Shown: positions 13,025 to 61,477 of the stretch, piece by piece
Layout of the letters: every line of letters starts with the position of its first letter
Position numbering within the stretch: position 1 is the stretch's first letter
Source of the DNA: Minisyncoccia bacterium
GTDB taxonomy: Bacteria; Patescibacteriota; Minisyncoccia; Phycocordibacterales; UBA918
DNA length: 64,000 bases
Direction: 5' to 3'
Assembly (NCBI GenBank): GCA_041738755.1
Contig: JBGSPE010000007.1
Span: forward strand, 13,079 to 77,078
Program-made: the position numbers and the translations under genes
The notes under the pieces: model-generated
Seen by the model: the letters and a program-made list of their open reading frames with translations, nothing else
Told to the model about the DNA's origin: nothing
The model's database searches: none

Positions 13025-14278
13025 ATGCATAAGCCGCTGAGTGCGCACGCCAGAACATTAACGTATCGAGCATCCGAACGAATGGCTGTTTTGCGTAGCT
13101 TGAGTGTTCCGGAGCGAAGTGTTGTCTTTCAAGAATTATCACCGTATGTACAACAATCCATTCTTTCTCATCTCAAAGATCAAGAGCTCGTTAACATGCT
13201 CGACAATATGGATATGGACCAGGCTGAGCGAGCGGTCGCACAAATTCCTAATGTAAAACGGCGGAAACGAGTTATTCAGCGGCTGAAAGGGGATATTCGA
13301 GAAAAGATGGATTATTTCTTACGCTTTCATCCGCAAGCATCTTTGTCACTCATTAATTTTAATTATTTATTTTTACCCAGTACTCTGACAATCGGTGAAG
13401 CTGCGGCAGTGATTGATGAACATTATGAAGAAATGGGTAAGTACCCAGAGTTGCTCGTCCACGAAAAAGGACGTTTGGTGGGGGAGGTGCCGTTTGCGGC
13501 AATGGTTCGTGAACGAAATGCCAGTCAATTAAAAAAGCACCTTCATCCAATTCCAACGATTTCATACAAGTCAGACGTTCCTGAGATTATTGAATTATTG
13601 ACGGGAACACAAAGCAAAAAAGTTGTGGTCCTTGATCATGATGAAAGTGTTCTGGGAATAATTTATGCTGATACCGTAAGGCCACTGTTTAGTGACGTAA
13701 GTTCAGAATCGCTCTATGATTTTGCTGGAGTTGATGCGAGTGAACGTGCGAGTGATGGTGTGTGGAAAAAAGTCAACGCTCGATACAAATGGTTGATTAT
13801 AAACCTCGGCACTGGTTTCCTTGCTGCCTCGGTAGTCAGTCTTTTTGAGAATACATTAAATGAGTTAGTGCTACTCGCTATTTACATGCCTATTGTAGCC
13901 GGGATGGGTGGAAACGCTGCTACCCAAACACTGGCCGTTACCGTACGAGGAATTACCATGGGAGAAATTAGTCTTGCAACTGGCCTCAAACCAGTTCTTA
14001 ACGAAGTAGGCGCTGGGTTTATTAACGGAGTCATTAACGGTGTGTTGGTGGCAATTGTTGCCGTACTATGGAATCAAAGTCCTGGTCTAGGCTTTGTAAT
14101 TGGGGTTGCCATGGTCTGCAACTTGGTAATTGCTGGTTTCTTTGGAGCATTCATTCCGTTGTTTATGAAAGCATTAGGTAAAGACCCAGCTACTTCAGCG
14201 ACGATATTTATTACTACCGCTACAGACGTATTTGGGTTCTTTATTTTCTTAGGATTGGCAACTATTATACTTCTATAG
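13025..14278 (+). CDS. mgtE: magnesium transporter MgtE
   Basis: MgtE N-domain, CBS pair, C-terminal 5-TM domain with PIVAGMGGNAATQTLAV; the listed start at 13001 overlaps the upstream terminator, internal ATG chosen. Confidence 0.85.
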   Translation: MHKPLSAHARTLTYRASERMAVLRSLSVPERSVVFQELSPYVQQSILSHLKDQELVNMLDNMDMDQAERAVAQIPNVKRRKRVIQRLKGDIREKMDYFLRFHPQASLSLINFNYLFLPSTLTIGEAAAVIDEHYEEMGKYPELLVHEKGRLVGEVPFAAMVRERNASQLKKHLHPIPTISYKSDVPEIIELLTGTQSKKVVVLDHDESVLGIIYADTVRPLFSDVSSESLYDFAGVDASERASDGVWKKVNARYKWLIINLGTGFLAASVVSLFENTLNELVLLAIYMPIVAGMGGNAATQTLAVTVRGITMGEISLATGLKPVLNEVGAGFINGVINGVLVAIVAVLWNQSPGLGFVIGVAMVCNLVIAGFFGAFIPLFMKALGKDPATSATIFITTATDVFGFFIFLGLATIILL

Positions 14279-22033: not shown

Positions 22034-22270
22034 ATGGATACAGTAGTTACAATTTATAGTACCCCAGTGTGTCATTTTTGCCATGCTGCAAAGGAATTTT
22101 TTAAGGAAAATAATGTTGCGTACACAGAGTATGATGTTGCGTCTGATGCAGCAAAACGAACTGAGATGATTGATATGACAGGGCAAATGGGCGTACCTGT
22201 AATTCAAATCGGTGATGATGTGATTATTGGTTTTGATGAGCCAAAGATTAAAGAACTTCTCAAGCTGTAA
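22034..22270 (+). CDS. glutaredoxin-like / NrdH-type redoxin
   Basis: 78 aa, CHFC active site near the N-terminus, GVPVIQIGDDVIIGFD thioredoxin-fold motif. Confidence 0.8.
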   Translation: MDTVVTIYSTPVCHFCHAAKEFFKENNVAYTEYDVASDAAKRTEMIDMTGQMGVPVIQIGDDVIIGFDEPKIKELLKL

Positions 22271-22289
22271 GGTAAAACCAGACAAACAA

Positions 22290-22313
22290 AAACGCCCTTC
22301 GGGGCGCTTTTGT
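22290..22313 (+). terminator. rho-independent terminator
   Basis: aaacgccc ttcg gggcgcttttgtt. Confidence 0.7.
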
Positions 22314-22409
22314 TATTGTGCCCTTGGCAGGAATCCCCTCCGGGCCTGGATAATTGTCATAAATATCAAATCACCCTTCGATTCCTGACAGAAGTAAAAC
22401 TATTTACTT

Positions 22410-22454
22410 CTGCCAGAGGCACATTTAAAAATCTTTTAAATGTGCCTCTGGCAG
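22410..22454. repeat. perfect 17-bp inverted repeat whose right arm is the 3' end of tRNA-Arg
   Basis: ctgccagaggcacattt (22410-22426), loop aaaaatctttt, aaatgtgcctctggcag (22438-22454); the right arm covers the tRNA acceptor 3' strand plus trailer. Confidence 0.9.
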
Positions 22455-22514
22455 GAATCGAACCCACATCTCCCCCTTAGGACGGGGTAGCTCTATCCAT
22501 TGAGCTACAAAGGC
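22443..22514 (-). tRNA. tRNA-Arg (anticodon CCT)
   Basis: Reverse complement folds: acceptor GCCTTTG/CAGAGGC, D-arm GCTC AATGGATA GAGC, anticodon loop GTCCTAA, T-arm GTGGG TTCGATT CCTGC, discriminator A; A27·G43 mismatch noted. Confidence 0.75.
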
Positions 22515-22966: not shown

Positions 22967-22974
22967 CAAAACAA

Positions 22975-23006
22975 AAAATTGCCACAATTCTGTGGCAATT
23001 TTTTGT
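22975..23006. terminator. bidirectional terminator (tRNA-Phe on + and hsp20 on -)
   Basis: aattgccaca attc tgtggcaatt flanked by A- and T-tracts. Confidence 0.75.
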
Positions 23007-23522
23007 TTACTTATGACCTGCGTTACTTCTGACCTTAAGTTGTGTTGTGCGGTGTTTGTCGAGCTTGGGAAGTTTGATTTCAAGCATGCCGTGTTTTTCT
23101 TGTGCCTCGGCTTCGTCAATCGCAACTTCTTCTGGTAAGACGAGTGTTCTTGAGAAACCACCCCAGAATAATTCTCGATGGAAGTATCCATCGTCATGGA
23201 CTTCTTGAAATTCTTCTCGCACACCACGGATGGTGACCATGTCGCGGGTGATAGAGATTTCAAGGTCAGTTGGACTTACCCCAGCGACAAGGGCTCGAAT
23301 CACAATACTCTCATCAGTTTGGTACATATCGACAGGTAGTTCACCGTCTTGCGTACTGCCCGTTGATTCTTGGTCATCCCAAGCATCATCTTCTTGATAA
23401 CTGTCTTCAACAGCAAGGTTATCTTCTTCACCAAATTCATGATTTTCATCAAGGATTCGGTCGTAGTCGCGATCTTGTTGATTGCCACCAGTGAGTCGGT
23501 CTAGAAATGAGGGTTTTTTCAT
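23007..23522 (-). CDS. Hsp20/alpha-crystallin small heat-shock protein with a long acidic N-terminal extension
   Basis: C-terminal alpha-crystallin domain (…PVDMYQTDESIVIRALVAGVSP…GYFHRELFWGGFSRTLVLPEEV…LEIKLPK); first ~60 residues D/E-rich. Confidence 0.85.
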   Translation of the reverse strand: MKKPSFLDRLTGGNQQDRDYDRILDENHEFGEEDNLAVEDSYQEDDAWDDQESTGSTQDGELPVDMYQTDESIVIRALVAGVSPTDLEISITRDMVTIRGVREEFQEVHDDGYFHRELFWGGFSRTLVLPEEVAIDEAEAQEKHGMLEIKLPKLDKHRTTQLKVRSNAGHK

Positions 23523-29232: not shown

Positions 29233-29247
29233 CAGAAGAAAACAAAG

Positions 29248-29288
29248 GGCCCTGGATTCTAAAAGAATCCAGGGCCCTTTGTTCGATT
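29248..29288. terminator. bidirectional terminator
   Basis: aaagggccctggattc taaaa gaatccagggcccttt. Confidence 0.75.
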
Positions 29289-29309
29289 TCACAATGAATC
29301 AAATGTGTG

Positions 29310-29382
29310 TGACCGATACAGGACTTGAACCTGTGACCTCTACAATGTCAATGTAGCGCTCTACCAGCTGAGCTAATCGGTC
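29310..29382 (-). tRNA. tRNA-Val (anticodon GAC)
   Basis: Reverse complement: acceptor GACCGAT/ATCGGTC, D-arm GCTC AGCTGGTA GAGC, anticodon stem CTACA/TGTAG with loop TTGACAT, T-arm ACAGG TTCAAGT CCTGT, discriminator A; flanks gtgtgt/cacaca extend the acceptor helix in the precursor. Confidence 0.85.
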
Positions 29383-29547
29383 ACACACATTTCATTCTAA
29401 AGAACTCTTCAATGAGATGGTAAAAATGTCTGGGAGACATTTTTACCGCTACCACTCTACTAATCGCACAAATAAATCTAACGACGAGAATGTTACCATA
29501 TTATTTAATAATTGGAATCAAGTGTTGCTTAGGGTACTATTTAGGAT

Positions 29548-40408: not shown

Positions 40409-40569
40409 TTTGGTGTGTAGAGGTTGGTAGGAACCGGTCACGAGTTACTAACCAAAATATTTATTTTATTATAAATATTTTGCTAAGTACTCGCGACCCC
40501 AGCTCGCTGTTCAGTGCGGCGGGCCAGAGCCGCACTTCACAACGCTCCGCTTCGCAGTTCCGTCAAAGC

Positions 40570-41793
40570 TTATTTAAGCTTTGACCTTCTTAAGAAGGCC
40601 GGAACGGCGCCCCAGTCGTCTTCGTCATCGGTGTCGTCTTGTTGATCAACTGGTTTTGGATCACGCTTTGGGATGTCGTGTACATTTGGGGTGGGTTCAG
40701 GAATTCTTGTTTCATCAGCTTTACGTGGAAGTGAGTTGAAGATTTTTCCGCGGTTTACTGGTTCAGCTTCTACCTCTGGCTCTGGTTCATTTTGGATACT
40801 TGGTGCTCGACGAGCAATATGACTCCGGGCAGCCGCTTCTTCGGGGAAGCCGGTAGCGATAACCGTTACCTTGATTTCATTCTTCTTCAACTTGTCGTCC
40901 TTGATAGCTCCAAAGATAACCTTAGCTTGTGAGTCGATTGATTCGGTAATCACACGAGCAGCATCTTGGATTTCAAGCATTCCGAGGTCATCGCCCCCAG
41001 CAATCGCAAAGAGGACGCCCTTGGCTCCCGTGATAGAAACTTCAAGGAGTGGGGAATTGATAGCACTTCGAGCTGCTTCTTCGGCTCGCTTTTCACCTGA
41101 TGAGACACCGACACCCATAAGGGCTGAACCAGCATTCTCCATAACGCTTCGAATGTCAGCGAAGTCGACGTTGATGATACCAGGCATGGTAATAAGGTCT
41201 GAGATACCCTCAACTGCTTGTTTCAAGACATTGTCACACTGCTCAAAAGCATTACGTACGGTAGTTTCCTTATCAACGATAGCAAGGAGTCGGTCATTTG
41301 GAATGGTGATGAGGGCATCTACTTCTTTCTTGAGTTCCTCGATACCTTGGAGAGCCAGTCGCATTCGTTCTTGTCCTTCAAACAAAAATGGCTTGGTGAC
41401 AACAGCAATCGTAAGCGCTCCGCTCTCGCGAGCAATCTTAGCTACAACCGGTGCTGAACCAGTTCCGGTTCCACCACCCATACCTCCGGTAATAAAGATC
41501 ATATCTGACCCCTTGATTGCATTAGCGATTTCTTCACGAGTTTCCTCTGCGGCGCGACGACCCATGTCAGGGTTACCACCAGCTCCGAGTCCTCGAGTAA
41601 GATTTTTACCAATGTGAATTTTTTTCTTCGCGAGTGAGTGATGGAGATCTTGTGCGTCACTGTTGATAGCAATGAACTCCACTCCTTTCACTTTTGAAGA
41701 CACCATGTGATTGACGGCGTTCTTTCCAGAACCACCAACACCCACCACACGAATGCGGGCGAAGGATTCAACGTCTGATTTTATTTGTTCCAT
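40570..41793 (-). CDS. ftsZ: cell division GTPase FtsZ
   Basis: [13 protein letters not shown] tubulin signature, T7 loop, long disordered C-terminal tail. Confidence 0.95.
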
Positions 41794-49300: not shown

Positions 49301-49364
49301 GCACATCGACACAGCCCCCAAAACACTTCGTGTTTTGGGGGCTGTGTCGTATACTGTTGTCACT

Positions 49365-59035: not shown

Positions 59036-60094
59036 TTGTATGATTTGAGCCACATGAGTACTGCTACGTATAAAGACCTGAGAAGTCGGGAAGAAAAGCA
59101 GCTGGCGGCGAAAGCTGATACACGTCCACGAGTGACCTTGTCGTTCTATCGATATGTGCAAATTGCTGATCCTGAACAGTTTCGTTTGGAGCTATTAGAG
59201 GCCTGGAGTAGCTTAGAATGCCGTGGTCGTATCTACGTCGCACACGAGGGTATTAATGCGCAAATGGATGTGCTGAAGGAGCAGTGGGACGCCTTTGACG
59301 CTTTTGTGCAGAGCCGACTGGAGCTTGCTGCAGTGCCATACAAGATAGCGGTAGAAGAAGGTGAACTGCCGTCGTTTTTTAAGTTGACAATCAAGGTCAA
59401 AGATAAGATTGTGGCGGACGGTCTTGATGATGCCTCATTTGATGTGACTGATACAGGAGTGTATCTGACAGCGGCTGAAATAAATGCGTATGTCGAAGAC
59501 CCGGATGCGGTAGTGGTTGATATGCGAAATTCTTATGAGAGTGAAGTAGGTCATTTTGAAGGAGCTATTACTCCAAATGTAGAGACGTTTCGGGATGAGC
59601 TTGCTTTAGCACCTGCTCTCCTTGAACCATACAAGGATAAGAAGATTGCCCTCTACTGTACTGGTGGCATTCGTTGTGAAAAGGCCAGTGCCTGGCTCAA
59701 GCATAACGGTTTTAAGGATGTACGACACTTAAAGGGTGGGATTATTGACTACGCTCATCAAGTGAATGAGGAAGATTTAGAGAATAAATTTAAAGGGAAA
59801 AATTTTGTCTTCGATGAACGTCTCGGTGAGCGAGTGGGAGGGGAAGTGATTGCTCATTGTCACTTATGTAAAGTTACAAAGAGCGACACACACCACCATT
59901 GTAAAAATGAAGTGTGCCACGCTCTATTTATTGGATGTGATACCTGTATAGAAAAGAAACAGGGATATTGTGGAATTATCTGTCAGTTGACTGATAGATT
60001 ACCAAAGGGAATGAAAAAGCGGTACGCCAGATTCTATAACCAAGTCATCCGTAAGCGCATGAAATTTAAGAAGACGAGGTTGGTGAGTATTTAA
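59036..60094 (+). CDS. trhO: rhodanese-domain tRNA uridine(34) hydroxylase (TrhO/YceA, UPF0176)
   Basis: UPF0176 N-domain, rhodanese active-site loop YCTGGIRCEKAS, C-terminal Cys-rich tail. Confidence 0.75.
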   Translation: MYDLSHMSTATYKDLRSREEKQLAAKADTRPRVTLSFYRYVQIADPEQFRLELLEAWSSLECRGRIYVAHEGINAQMDVLKEQWDAFDAFVQSRLELAAVPYKIAVEEGELPSFFKLTIKVKDKIVADGLDDASFDVTDTGVYLTAAEINAYVEDPDAVVVDMRNSYESEVGHFEGAITPNVETFRDELALAPALLEPYKDKKIALYCTGGIRCEKASAWLKHNGFKDVRHLKGGIIDYAHQVNEEDLENKFKGKNFVFDERLGERVGGEVIAHCHLCKVTKSDTHHHCKNEVCHALFIGCDTCIEKKQGYCGIICQLTDRLPKGMKKRYARFYNQVIRKRMKFKKTRLVSI

Positions 60095-60118
60095 AAAACT
60101 GCCACAGGCAGTTTTTTA
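60094..60118 (+). terminator. rho-independent terminator
   Basis: aaaaaactgcc aca ggcagtttttt. Confidence 0.8.
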
Positions 60119-60218
60119 AATTGCGCGTGAGAGAGGCTCGGTCACAAATAATTTTGCAAACAAAATTTTCTCGACCCGTAAAACAGTGTATAGACACTGT
60201 TTTACCATTTGTTCACAA

Positions 60219-60270
60219 GCTCACATCATTCCGGCTTTCGAGTCCCCACGGTAGCAAAGCAGTTTGCTAC
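60219..60270. repeat. repeated intergenic hairpin element, copy 1 (palindrome ggtagcaaa gcag tttgctacc at 60249-60270)
   Basis: Shares …tcacaag…catc at(t/g)ccggct…caaagcagtttgc… with copy 2; contains ttcgagtcc, a same-sense copy of the tRNA-Leu T-loop/T-stem. Confidence 0.7.
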
Positions 60271-60272
60271 CT

Positions 60273-60334
60273 TCTCACGCACAGACAAAAATCGCCCTCA
60301 TAAATGAGGGCTGATTTTTGTATCTGTGCGTGAG
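60273..60334. repeat. long imperfect inverted repeat enclosing a terminator hairpin and overlapping the tRNA-Leu 3' end
   Basis: ctcacgcacagacaaaaatc [gccctca taaa tgagggc] gatttttgtatctgtgcgtgag; the right arm includes the tRNA discriminator plus acceptor 3' strand. Confidence 0.8.
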
Positions 60335-60407
60335 AGAGGACTCGAACCTCCACAGGTCACCCTACTAGTTCCTAAGACTAGCGCGTCTACCATTCCGCCA
60401 CTCACGC
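60327..60407 (-). tRNA. tRNA-Leu (anticodon TAG), long variable arm
   Basis: Reverse complement: acceptor GCGTGAG/CTCACGC, anticodon stem CTAGT/ACTAG with loop CTTAGGA, variable arm ~TAGGGTGACCTGTGG, T-loop TTCGAGT, discriminator A. Confidence 0.8.
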
Positions 60408-60593
60408 AATGTGGGCGAGTATAGCAGATTTCTTTGTTGGTTGCTACCAACTTGGAAAAGTCTTCCAAACATTCTAAGTCCGGACAAAAATAAAAACCCT
60501 TTCGGGTCTTTATCGTCGTCACAAGTCCTCAGAAAGTATATTCCTTACAGTCATTACTTTCTTGGCTCGCGACCCCGCCTCACTCGTAGCAAA

Positions 60594-60644
60594 GCTACAT
60601 CATGCCGGCTCGGACAGCCGTCGCAAGCAAAGCAGTTTGCTTGC
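60594..60644. repeat. repeated intergenic hairpin element, copy 2 (palindrome gcaagcaaa gcag tttgcttgc at 60623-60644)
   Basis: Same core and loop as copy 1 with two compensatory base-pair swaps in the stem; contains cggacagccg, complementary to the tRNA-Lys 3' end/trailer on the other strand. Confidence 0.7.
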
Positions 60645-60649
60645 TAATT

Positions 60650-60685
60650 AAAACAACCTCAGACTAAAAAGTCTGAGGTTGTTTT
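60650..60685 (-). terminator. hairpin terminator downstream of tRNA-Lys
   Basis: aaaacaacctcagac taaaaa gtctgaggttgtttt. Confidence 0.7.
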
Positions 60686-60696
60686 AATTCCGGCTG

Positions 60697-60769
60697 TCCG
60701 CCCTCCAGGACTCGAACCTGGGACCATCTCGTTAAGAGCGAGCTGCTCTACCAACTGAGCTAAGGGCGG
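60697..60769 (-). tRNA. tRNA-Lys (anticodon CTT)
   Basis: Reverse complement: acceptor CCGCCCT/AGGGCGG, D-arm GCTC AGTTGGTA GAGC, anticodon stem GCTCG/CGAGA with loop CTCTTAA, T-arm CCAGG TTCGAGT CCTGG, discriminator A. Confidence 0.85.
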
Positions 60770-60897: not shown

Positions 60898-60988
60898 AGT
60901 ACGGCCCACTATATCACCATTTACCTAAAACAAAAATAACAATTTGGGGGAATACTTGTTATTATGTGAGTATAATCACGTTTACCAT

Positions 60989-61477
60989 ATGGCAACACGT
61001 CGTTGGACAATTAAAGACTTAAAGACAGCAGTGAAATCATCTCACAGCACCCGTGAAGTTATTTTTAAATTAGGTTTAATCCCAGCGGGTGGGAATTATG
61101 AGCAAATAAAAACCGCAATATTTGAGAATAAAATTTCAACTACACATTTTACCGGTAAGGGATGGCGAATAAACCGGACGTTCGCACCAAACCCGCGCAT
61201 CCCACTTTCAAATATATTGGTAGGTCACTCAAAATTTCAAAGCTTCAAACTCAAAAAGCGATTATTTACAGAGGGTTTAAAGTTACAAAAGTGCGAGCTG
61301 TGTGGCTGGGCAGAACAATCACAAGATGGTAGAATCCCTCTCGAACTCGATCATATCAATGGTGACCGTTATGACAATAGAATAGAAAATCTAAGGATTC
61401 TCTGTCCAAATTGTCACAGCTTACAACCTACGCATCGAGGGATGAATCAAAAACGCCGGGTGAAGCAGAAGCCCTAG
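60989..61477 (+). CDS. free-standing HNH endonuclease (homing-endonuclease-like) between tRNA genes
   Basis: C-terminal HNH motif [25 protein letters not shown] with CELCGW…CPNCH zinc ligands; basic N-terminal putative DNA-binding domain; TATAAT at 60971-60976 just upstream of the ATG at 60989. Confidence 0.8.

Follow-up and report, generated by a model that had tools for sequence, protein, structure and literature searches.

A 124-bp insert at a tRNA-Arg gene end and an apparently undescribed family of small structured inserts in Patescibacteria

Patescibacteria (candidate phyla radiation) have tiny genomes with few recognised mobile elements. Small non-autonomous repeat elements of other bacteria include miniature inverted-repeat transposable elements (MITEs) and the REP/REPIN sequences. 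Integron attC sites and the attP(+) hairpin of CTX-phi, which is used by XerCD, are folded single-strand recombination sites. In Escherichia coli, the tRNA-Tyr of tyrT is followed on its 3' side by 178-bp repeats that each contain a tRNA 3' end (rtT RNA). Arrays of partial tRNAs anchored at tRNA genes have been described for tycheposons (10.1101/2020.12.28.424599). The present analysis concerns the 3' region of a tRNA-Arg(CCT) gene in a 64,000-nucleotide stretch of contig JBGSPE010000007.1 (positions 13,079 to 77,078, assembly GCA_041738755.1) of a Minisyncoccia bacterium; this whole stretch is referred to as the window. The locus is probably a 124-bp non-autonomous integrative mini-element that bears a replacement gene end and is moved by a recombinase encoded elsewhere. 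It is part of a large family, apparently undescribed, whose members are very small structured inserts placed where tRNA or ribosomal-protein genes of Patescibacteria end; literature searches found no description of this insert family.

The intact tRNA-Arg(CCT) gene lies on the minus strand at 22442-22514 (ARAGORN; Rfam RF00005 tRNA at 22443-22514, 54.8 bits) and does not encode CCA. A 17-bp inverted repeat reported at its 3' end in an initial annotation of the window proved to be longer, 21 bp. It forms a perfect palindrome at 22410-22454, which has no strand of its own and consists of arms 22410-22430 and 22434-22454 that are 100% complementary and separated by a 3-nt centre. One arm comprises the final 12 nt of the tRNA and 9 trailer nt. 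In the tRNA sense, the gene end ...TTCGATTCCTGCCAGAGGCAC is followed by the trailer ATTTAAAA, the 3-nt centre, and the exact reverse complement TTTTAAATGTGCCTCTGGCAG. This is the longest perfect hairpin among the 26 long inverted repeats of the window. It has no T run and no G+C-rich core, and the terminator scan of the window did not report it.

The palindrome is followed by a second hairpin (hp2; CAGAAGTAAA-TAGT-TTTACTTCTG, 22389-22412, minus strand), found by inverted repeat search, which splits the inverted copy at the junction of its acceptor and T-stem parts. Next, T-loop sequence together with the 3' strand of the T-stem recurs in inverted orientation (22377-22392, minus strand) and matches 22447-22462 over 16 nt with 94% identity; this inverted stretch corresponds to the imperfect T-loop/acceptor copy of the initial annotation. 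A spacer of 41 nt (22336-22376, minus strand) contains a weak predicted hairpin at 22348-22376 and occupies the place of a conserved scaffold found in other inserts (see below). In a blastn comparison against all fetched loci it matched only itself and contig L187, and no relatives. L187, an independent Logan contig, is identical in sequence to the window at the tRNA-Arg locus; hence, the arrangement is not an assembly artefact.

The repeat search further revealed a distal direct copy at 22310-22335 (minus strand), which consists of the displaced ancestral tRNA 3' end (22318-22335) and the ancestral trailer. Its counterpart is the proximal identity-block copy at 22434-22459 (minus strand), i.e. 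the tRNA 3' part from the T-loop to the end together with 8 nt of trailer. The downstream copy of the tRNA end noticed initially thus extends into the trailer, and the two copies are 81% identical over 26 nt at a spacing of 124 bp. The inserted unit, 22336-22459 on the minus strand, begins with the first base of the proximal copy (T-loop G57) and ends immediately before the distal copy. The acceptor strands of the proximal copy (CAGAGGC) and the distal copy (CAAGGGC), as read from the sequence, can each pair with the 5' strand GCCTTTG, with one G.U apiece. Beyond the distal copy, the terminator scan and the inverted repeat search showed the ancestral intrinsic terminator (22285-22314), which is bidirectional and common to the convergent glutaredoxin gene at 22034-22270 (identified by a Pfam Glutaredoxin match on the L187 copy). 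This is the sole minus-strand terminator at the locus (22314-22285), and therefore the tRNA-Arg transcript probably reads through the insert.

Relatives for comparison were picked by a LepA anchor; LepA of the window is 75-84% identical to that of metagenome-assembled genomes labelled Paceibacterota, Parcubacteria or Nomurabacteria. Orthologous tRNA-Arg(CCT) sites were empty in seven relatives (L001, L004, L005, L012, L014, L021 and L024), in which the gene gives way directly to a trailer rich in A, then a G+C hairpin and a T run, and finally the glutaredoxin gene in convergent orientation. In the window, the distal copy has a trailer that resembles that of the empty sites (GGGCAC aataacaaaagcgcc... 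in the window and GGGCAC tataacaaaaagccg... in L001). As both the distal trailer and the terminator match the flank of the empty sites, the distal copy represents the original 3' end, and the insertion comprises the 124 bp at 22336-22459. The proposal that the direct repeat marks an insertion is thereby borne out. The same tRNA-Arg gene carries different inserts in L009, L015, L016, L018, L025, L027 and L028. The left half of the L028 insert is as in the window, including the hp2 core AAGTAAA...TTTACTT, and this core is also present in an insert at tRNA-Arg(TCG) in L071. Several contigs that share the gene order of the window and have LepA 75-78% identical to its LepA (L023, L011, L012, L014 and others) bear Acidimicrobiales or Saccharibacteria in their titles, which probably reflects mislabelling of the bins.

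The tRNA-Arg insert displays a layout that defines the family by architecture: the gene end and trailer, a centre, the inverted trailer and inverted gene end, hp2, an inverted T-loop, a spacer, and the distal gene end with the ancestral terminator. The same order was found in L028, L004, L014, L069 and others, and the architecture recurs in more than 100 contigs from many projects. Among the LepA-anchored relatives and the window, 14 of ~78 tRNAs are followed downstream by a copy of their own 3' 20-mer (at least 15 of 20 nt matching), and none has such a copy upstream; inserts thus lie behind roughly one tRNA in six. For all fetched loci, a sample enriched by the motif scan, the corresponding figures are 62/224 downstream versus 2/224 upstream. 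Occurrence downstream and not upstream shows that the copies are not due to chance.

Many inserts contain a conserved scaffold. Type A comprises P1, a 3-bp helix closing a fixed internal loop 5'-G(G/C)A...GA-3'; P2, a variable hairpin; and P3, which reads GGGGTCG(A/C)GAG - hairpin - bulged A - CT(C/T)GTGAC and ends exactly at the junction with the distal copy, usually at T-loop position C56. Type B, present in L028, L145, L173, L132 and L196, has a short hairpin end beside the T-loop copy. Neither type was detected in the tRNA-Arg unit by pattern search or by blastn against the fetched loci. A scan of metagenome contigs with the P3 pattern gave at least 125 matches. Among those listed, 68 lie within 600 nt (37-501 nt) on the 3' side of a same-strand tRNA, with ~20 amino-acid types represented, and the other low-G+C matches mostly have the same architecture. 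The same scan of viral contigs gave 11 high-G+C matches, none near a tRNA, which are chance hits.

Covariation in the scaffold was assessed by our own counts on a modular parse; a MAFFT alignment misaligned the 5' part of the scaffold. The P1 helix is formed by seven Watson-Crick types in 57 of 67 elements, versus ~7% expected by chance. Positions 2 and 3 of P2 pair in 54/57 and 47/57 elements (shuffle maxima 36 and 35), and six positions of the P3 inner stem pair in 53-61 of 62 (shuffle maxima 40-53), the bulged A being invariant (62/62). Across the family hp2 has variable stems, often with a CTGC loop. In 65/67 elements folding is better for the tRNA-sense than for the antisense strand, largely owing to conserved G.T wobbles that are fixed by the search pattern. 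Outside the pattern-fixed positions G.U/G.T pairs amount to ~2% and are equally frequent on both strands, which at most leans towards DNA. A terminator-like hairpin separates the tRNA from the scaffold in 33/63 units, about half having none; a normal terminator forms the centre of the palindrome in roughly half of type A units.

The family is neither confined to tRNA genes nor static. Type A members occur at the 3' end of rplL (L109), at the 3' end of rpsI (L101 and L152), and just 3' of ftsZ in the window, which does not support the role in tRNA transcripts suggested initially. In L109 the proximal rplL end reads GTA ACT TTA AAA TAA and the distal one GTA ACA CTT AAA TAG; both encode VTLK followed by a stop, and all four differences (4/4) are synonymous. 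Hence, both copies evolved as working gene ends, and the proximal one was imported with the insert. The rpsI junction GTGAC|CTAA is common to the two independent contigs. Tandem arrays, in which units of 95-250 bp recur, were found in L071, L173, L135, L196 and others. Some units carry genes: L123 has two genes between two near-identical right halves, and L112 two small open reading frames (ORFs). The P3 segments of two L071 inserts, at Arg and Gly tRNAs, are identical but for one base, while the inserts differ elsewhere. Inserts also come and go between genomes: four relatives have, at their orthologous tRNAs for Leu, Lys and Cys, either an empty site or an insert of another type.

Three further members are located in the window, all on the minus strand, and the recurrence of the architecture at tRNA-Leu and tRNA-Lys noted in the initial annotation was reproduced. 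The first, characterised by repeats, folding and the terminator scan, is a 203-bp insert at tRNA-Leu(TAG) (gene 60326-60407; gene with insert 60123-60407). Its inverted repeat is 60273-60291/60317-60335, and its direct repeat 60112-60136/60315-60339 has a spacing of 203 bp. The palindrome (60273-60335) encloses a terminator-like site at 60294-60311, so that its centre qualifies in the terminator scan as an ordinary intrinsic terminator. It is followed by hp2 (60250-60271), the inverted T-loop (60237-60247), P1/P2 (60205-60236), a P3-like hairpin that nearly matches the type A pattern (60141-60177), and the distal copy (60123-60140). The ancestral terminator (60093-60117) lies just outside the span of gene and insert.

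The second member is a short type A insert at tRNA-Lys(CTT) (gene 60696-60769; gene with insert 60485-60769). The palindrome arms, 60691-60700 and 60611-60620, enclose a terminator hairpin (60646-60689) and hp2 (60623-60644). P1/P2 (60577-60610) and P3 (60518-60576), the latter agreeing exactly with the family pattern, are followed by GAC and the ancestral trailer and terminator (60485-60517). The third, a type A P3 scaffold at 40437-40500, likewise matches the pattern exactly and is not beside a tRNA; it lies just 3' of ftsZ (40570-41793, Pfam), whose terminal codons and stop are inside a perfect 11-bp palindrome (GTCAAAGCTTA / TAAGCTTTGAC). In this region (40437-40620) ...GTGAC is followed by CGGTTCCTACC... 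and then by a terminator; the stretch beginning with CGGTTCCTACC could be either the displaced ftsZ end or a tRNA fragment. The two exact P3 matches in the window, those at tRNA-Lys and ftsZ, compare with 0.00 expected by chance. The tRNA-Arg copy is a short member with no conserved scaffold and with no terminator core at the centre of its palindrome.

These features suggest how the mini-element could have arisen at its site. It would have entered tRNA-Arg within or beside the T-loop and supplied its own tRNA 3' part, so that the tRNA would stay intact and the original 3' end, trailer and terminator would be shifted 124 bp downstream. On this insertion model, the 3' part of the present tRNA-Arg(CCT) gene from the T-loop onward would be derived from the insert. 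The element is self-complementary over nearly its whole length: the replacement tRNA end and trailer pair with the inverted copy to form the perfect palindrome, and hp2 interrupts this inverted copy before it passes into the inverted T-loop. The resulting order, X-a-[loop]-a'-X'-b'-[loop]-b-X with X being the gene end, may be obtained from a circle of two complementary arms and two loops that recombines at X, and such a circle might consist either of double-stranded DNA that contains an inverted repeat or of one strand folded on itself. When folded as a circle with DNA parameters, the 124-bp Arg unit has 74% of its bases paired and a dG of -30.1 as compared with -4.6 +/- 2.7 for shuffled sequences (z = -9.4); 78% of bases are paired in the Leu unit (z = -12.6). 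The family is Patescibacteria-wide and targets gene 3' ends, both in tRNA genes and in certain conserved protein genes. The sequence comparisons demonstrate the insertion, the displacement of the ancestral end, the existence of the family with its covarying scaffold, and the turnover of inserts between genomes, while site-specific recombination, a circular intermediate, and a recombinase acting in trans are inferred.

Several observations weigh against this interpretation. No recombinase gene was found in or beside the mini-elements, and the 124-bp unit is too small for an integrase gene. A tblastn search of the window revealed no large serine recombinase and, with an approximate XerD query, no XerD-like gene. 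Empty and filled alleles in one population were not seen, nor was a circular junction. The duplicated block varies from ~3 to 26 nt, which is unusual for a single site-specific recombinase, and the model offers no account of how element lineages gain arms matching new target genes. The Arg copy has no conserved scaffold, its family membership being based on the architecture and the hp2 core alone. Finally, an RNA would also account for two features, the conservation of G.T wobbles at the P3 base and the tendency of the tRNA-sense strand to fold better (65/67). A more specific version of the mini-element reading, drawn by analogy and tentative, is that the elements might be rod-like mini-circles, possibly of single-stranded DNA taken up or made in naturally competent ultra-small hosts. 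The stem would imitate a conserved gene 3' end (tRNA, rpsI or rplL), where strand exchange would take place as in integron cassettes and CTX-phi, with the target set by the paired arms rather than by a fixed core. P1/P2/P3 would then be a recombinase-binding module, and the whole a cassette system anchored at gene ends that could also carry cargo genes. The odds are clearly against this scheme being right in full.

Large serine recombinase (LSR) elements of the same lineage were considered as the mover. Genes for LSRs (Resolvase + Recombinase + Zn_ribbon_recom) are convergent with tRNA-Tyr, tRNA-Lys or tRNA-Phe and end beside the tRNA 3' end, as in all seven loci examined (7/7; L168, L188, L190-L193 and L028). 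In L168, L188 and L190-L193 they are flanked by inverted repeats of 150-209 bp with 97-100% identity, which start within the final 4-6 nt of the tRNA and include the C-terminal coding region of the recombinase; the L028 contig ends within the far arm. This candidate was rejected, as the LSR loci have neither a distal tRNA copy nor scaffold A, no LSR is present in the window, and only the topology is common to both; the common topology itself counts in favour of the mini-element reading. A search for LSRs in viral contigs found none.

As an alternative to mobile DNA, the feature may act at the RNA level. A hairpin in the 3' trailer would terminate, process or regulate the tRNA precursor, or the stretch from the inverted to the distal copy would be a structured non-coding RNA. 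In the latter case the ends would pair into a mimic of the acceptor/T-arm 'top half' of a tRNA, with hp2 replacing nucleotides 8-48, and tRNA-processing enzymes might recognise the mimic. Such a role is consistent with the covariation of the P1, P2, P3 and hp2 hairpins, with the conserved internal loop enclosed by P1, with the conservation of the G.T wobbles at the P3 base on the better-folding tRNA-sense strand, and with the units, about half of them, that have no terminator between tRNA and scaffold. Also, the minimum-energy fold predicted for each of the Arg and Leu precursors joins the 5' acceptor strand of the tRNA to the distal copy, leaving the proximal 3' end to pair with the inverted copy. 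Thus, the hairpin proposed initially as a terminator or processing signal is indeed predicted in the precursor, and an influence on tRNA-Arg maturation is possible as judged by these folds, but with no T run the hairpin is not terminator-like. The orthologous tRNAs of close relatives, moreover, lack the feature and have ordinary terminators instead; hence, it is not a lineage-wide device for tRNA termination or processing, as had been suggested. The terminator-like hairpin in 33/63 units would separate the tRNA from the scaffold, and rare, strand-symmetric G.U pairs outside the pattern-fixed sites resemble a DNA palindrome and are unlike a typical RNA. Members behind rplL and rpsI, with imported coding ends, also argue against an RNA function. 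A search of Rfam 15 at the Arg and Leu/Lys loci, at the gathering score and at E up to 5, recovered nothing but tRNA, other matches being weak and far below gathering scores. An RNA-level explanation is therefore considered unlikely, though it retains some force.

According to the initial annotation, the direct repeats are attL/attR scars of a conventional prophage or island with its own integrase, the interior of which has been almost entirely deleted. The flanking direct repeat of the tRNA 3' part and the displaced ancestral end fit such a history. So do the large elements of this lineage that integrate at tRNA ends (L168 and L188-L193) and the arrays of partial tRNAs described for tRNA-anchored islands, tycheposons among them (10.1101/2020.12.28.424599). 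However, random deletion would not leave the same ordered, compact layout and a covarying scaffold of 60-100 nt at dozens of tRNAs in many genomes. The conserved layout and scaffold indicate small units of a defined kind and not random remnants of deleted prophages. In addition, units of 95-250 bp are repeated in tandem, and integrase fragments were not found. The deletion scenario is accordingly given a poor chance.

It is less probable still that the locus arose by a local replication error with no mobile element involved, i.e. by two template switches at a palindromic terminator, giving a direct-inverted-direct triplication that subsequently decayed. Fold-back template switching in the quasipalindrome and DUP-INV-DUP mechanisms yields this order of copies; terminators in the window are long perfect palindromes that begin right behind genes, and the Arg spacer has no relatives. 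Nevertheless, the proximal and distal trailers differ, as does the proximal terminator, where present, from the ancestral one. The inverted copy is interrupted by hp2, which is common to Arg inserts of different genomes. Scaffolds are common to different loci and genomes, the Arg and Gly P3 of L071 being one base apart, and the rplL copies differ solely at synonymous sites. Chance similarity or an assembly artefact, suggested only by the general risk of repeats in metagenome assemblies and by the run of N at a tandem tRNA-Phe in L021, is practically negligible; the perfect 21-nt inverted repeat speaks against it, and it is already refuted by the identical independent assembly and the more than 100 contigs from many projects.

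Group I and group II introns, hammerhead and other ribozymes, retrons, IS200/IS605, IS110 bridge RNA, and a retroviral-style primer-binding site were dropped by inspection on the basis of size, the lack of defining motifs and of Rfam hits, and the position of the trailer inside the palindrome.

If the mini-elements are mobile, they would represent an unrecognised route of genome plasticity and gene exchange in Patescibacteria. Structured inserts of 100-400 bp lie behind a sizeable fraction of the tRNA genes and some ribosomal-protein genes of these bacteria, where they stack and sometimes carry genes. They would be a new example of integration that restores the end of the target gene and, depending on the enzyme, could provide a compact recombination site with a target-matching arm. 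The inserts also have a practical consequence: by creating partial copies of tRNAs as well as long hairpins, they can mislead the annotation of tRNAs, the prediction of terminators, and assembly. In L021, a run of N at 13488-13590 lies between two tandem tRNA-Phe 3' regions and is followed by a type A-like insert; such repeats appear to break or scaffold assemblies.

Some other features of the window are recorded here. A free-standing HNH endonuclease ORF (Pfam HNH_3, HNH; 60944-61477, plus strand) lies in a tRNA cluster, 7 nt 5' of tRNA-Leu(TAA), and its homologues adjoin tRNA-Thr in L148 and L182. At tRNA-Val(GAC) (29296-29397, minus strand) the 5' leader (29383-29397) is complementary to the 3' trailer (29296-29310) over 15 nt with one mismatch, and this pairing would lengthen the acceptor stem well past the mature ends in the precursor. 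Terminators of the window are unusually long perfect bidirectional palindromes with arms of 15-21 nt (A-tract, G+C core, T-tract), e.g. at 29241-29283, 49307-49349 and 22969-23008, and they often begin within a few bases of the gene end.

Among known systems, tyrT resembles the mini-elements in that partial tRNA 3'-end copies in direct orientation are repeated behind the gene. It differs in having neither inverted copies nor a palindrome that includes the tRNA end, and in not forming a family across tRNAs and genomes. Like MITEs and REP/REPIN sequences, the mini-inserts are small, gene-less, highly palindromic and multi-copy, lie just 3' of genes near terminators, and are presumably mobilised in trans. 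Unlike these, they have no conserved terminal inverted repeats and no target-site duplication of fixed length, the duplicated block being gene-specific and ranging over ~3-26 nt, and each insert carries sequence specific to its target gene that restores the gene 3' end. The LSR elements share the topology of the mini-elements at tRNA ends, with a gene inside the palindrome, but lack both a long direct repeat of the 3' part of the tRNA and any sequence similarity to them.

The resemblance to attC and CTX-phi is closer in layout. In both, target-like sequence is present in both orientations, so that one strand folds into a stem mimicking the double-stranded target, and the integrated order is a target copy, a short loop, an inverted copy, the remaining element, and a target copy. 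The tRNA-Arg insert is accordingly an imperfect palindrome with a target-mimicking stem and an inverted target copy beside one junction. Cassette-like tandem arrays without a recombinase of their own and an extra-helical feature on one arm (hp2) are further common points. Differences are that the target of the mini-elements is a gene 3' end and that the crossover is placed at the inner stem end beside the scaffold; R/L boxes or dif-like cores were not evident by eye in the mini-elements. The likeness is one of sequence layout.

tRNA-targeting integrative elements and islands, including tycheposons, also insert in the tRNA 3' part and regenerate the gene, leave the displaced 3' end as a partial copy, and stack. 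At tRNA-Arg the regenerated gene, the flanking direct repeat, and the empty site in relatives correspond to what attL and attR of such an element would give. The mini-elements are distinguished by a size of 95-400 bp without an integrase or other gene, by an inverted copy of their own identity block, by the structured scaffold that many of them share abutting the junction, and by their use of protein-gene 3' ends as well. Of the concepts described so far, the nearest is integrase-mediated insertion at the 3' part of tRNA genes accompanied by arrays of partial tRNAs, of which tycheposons are an example.

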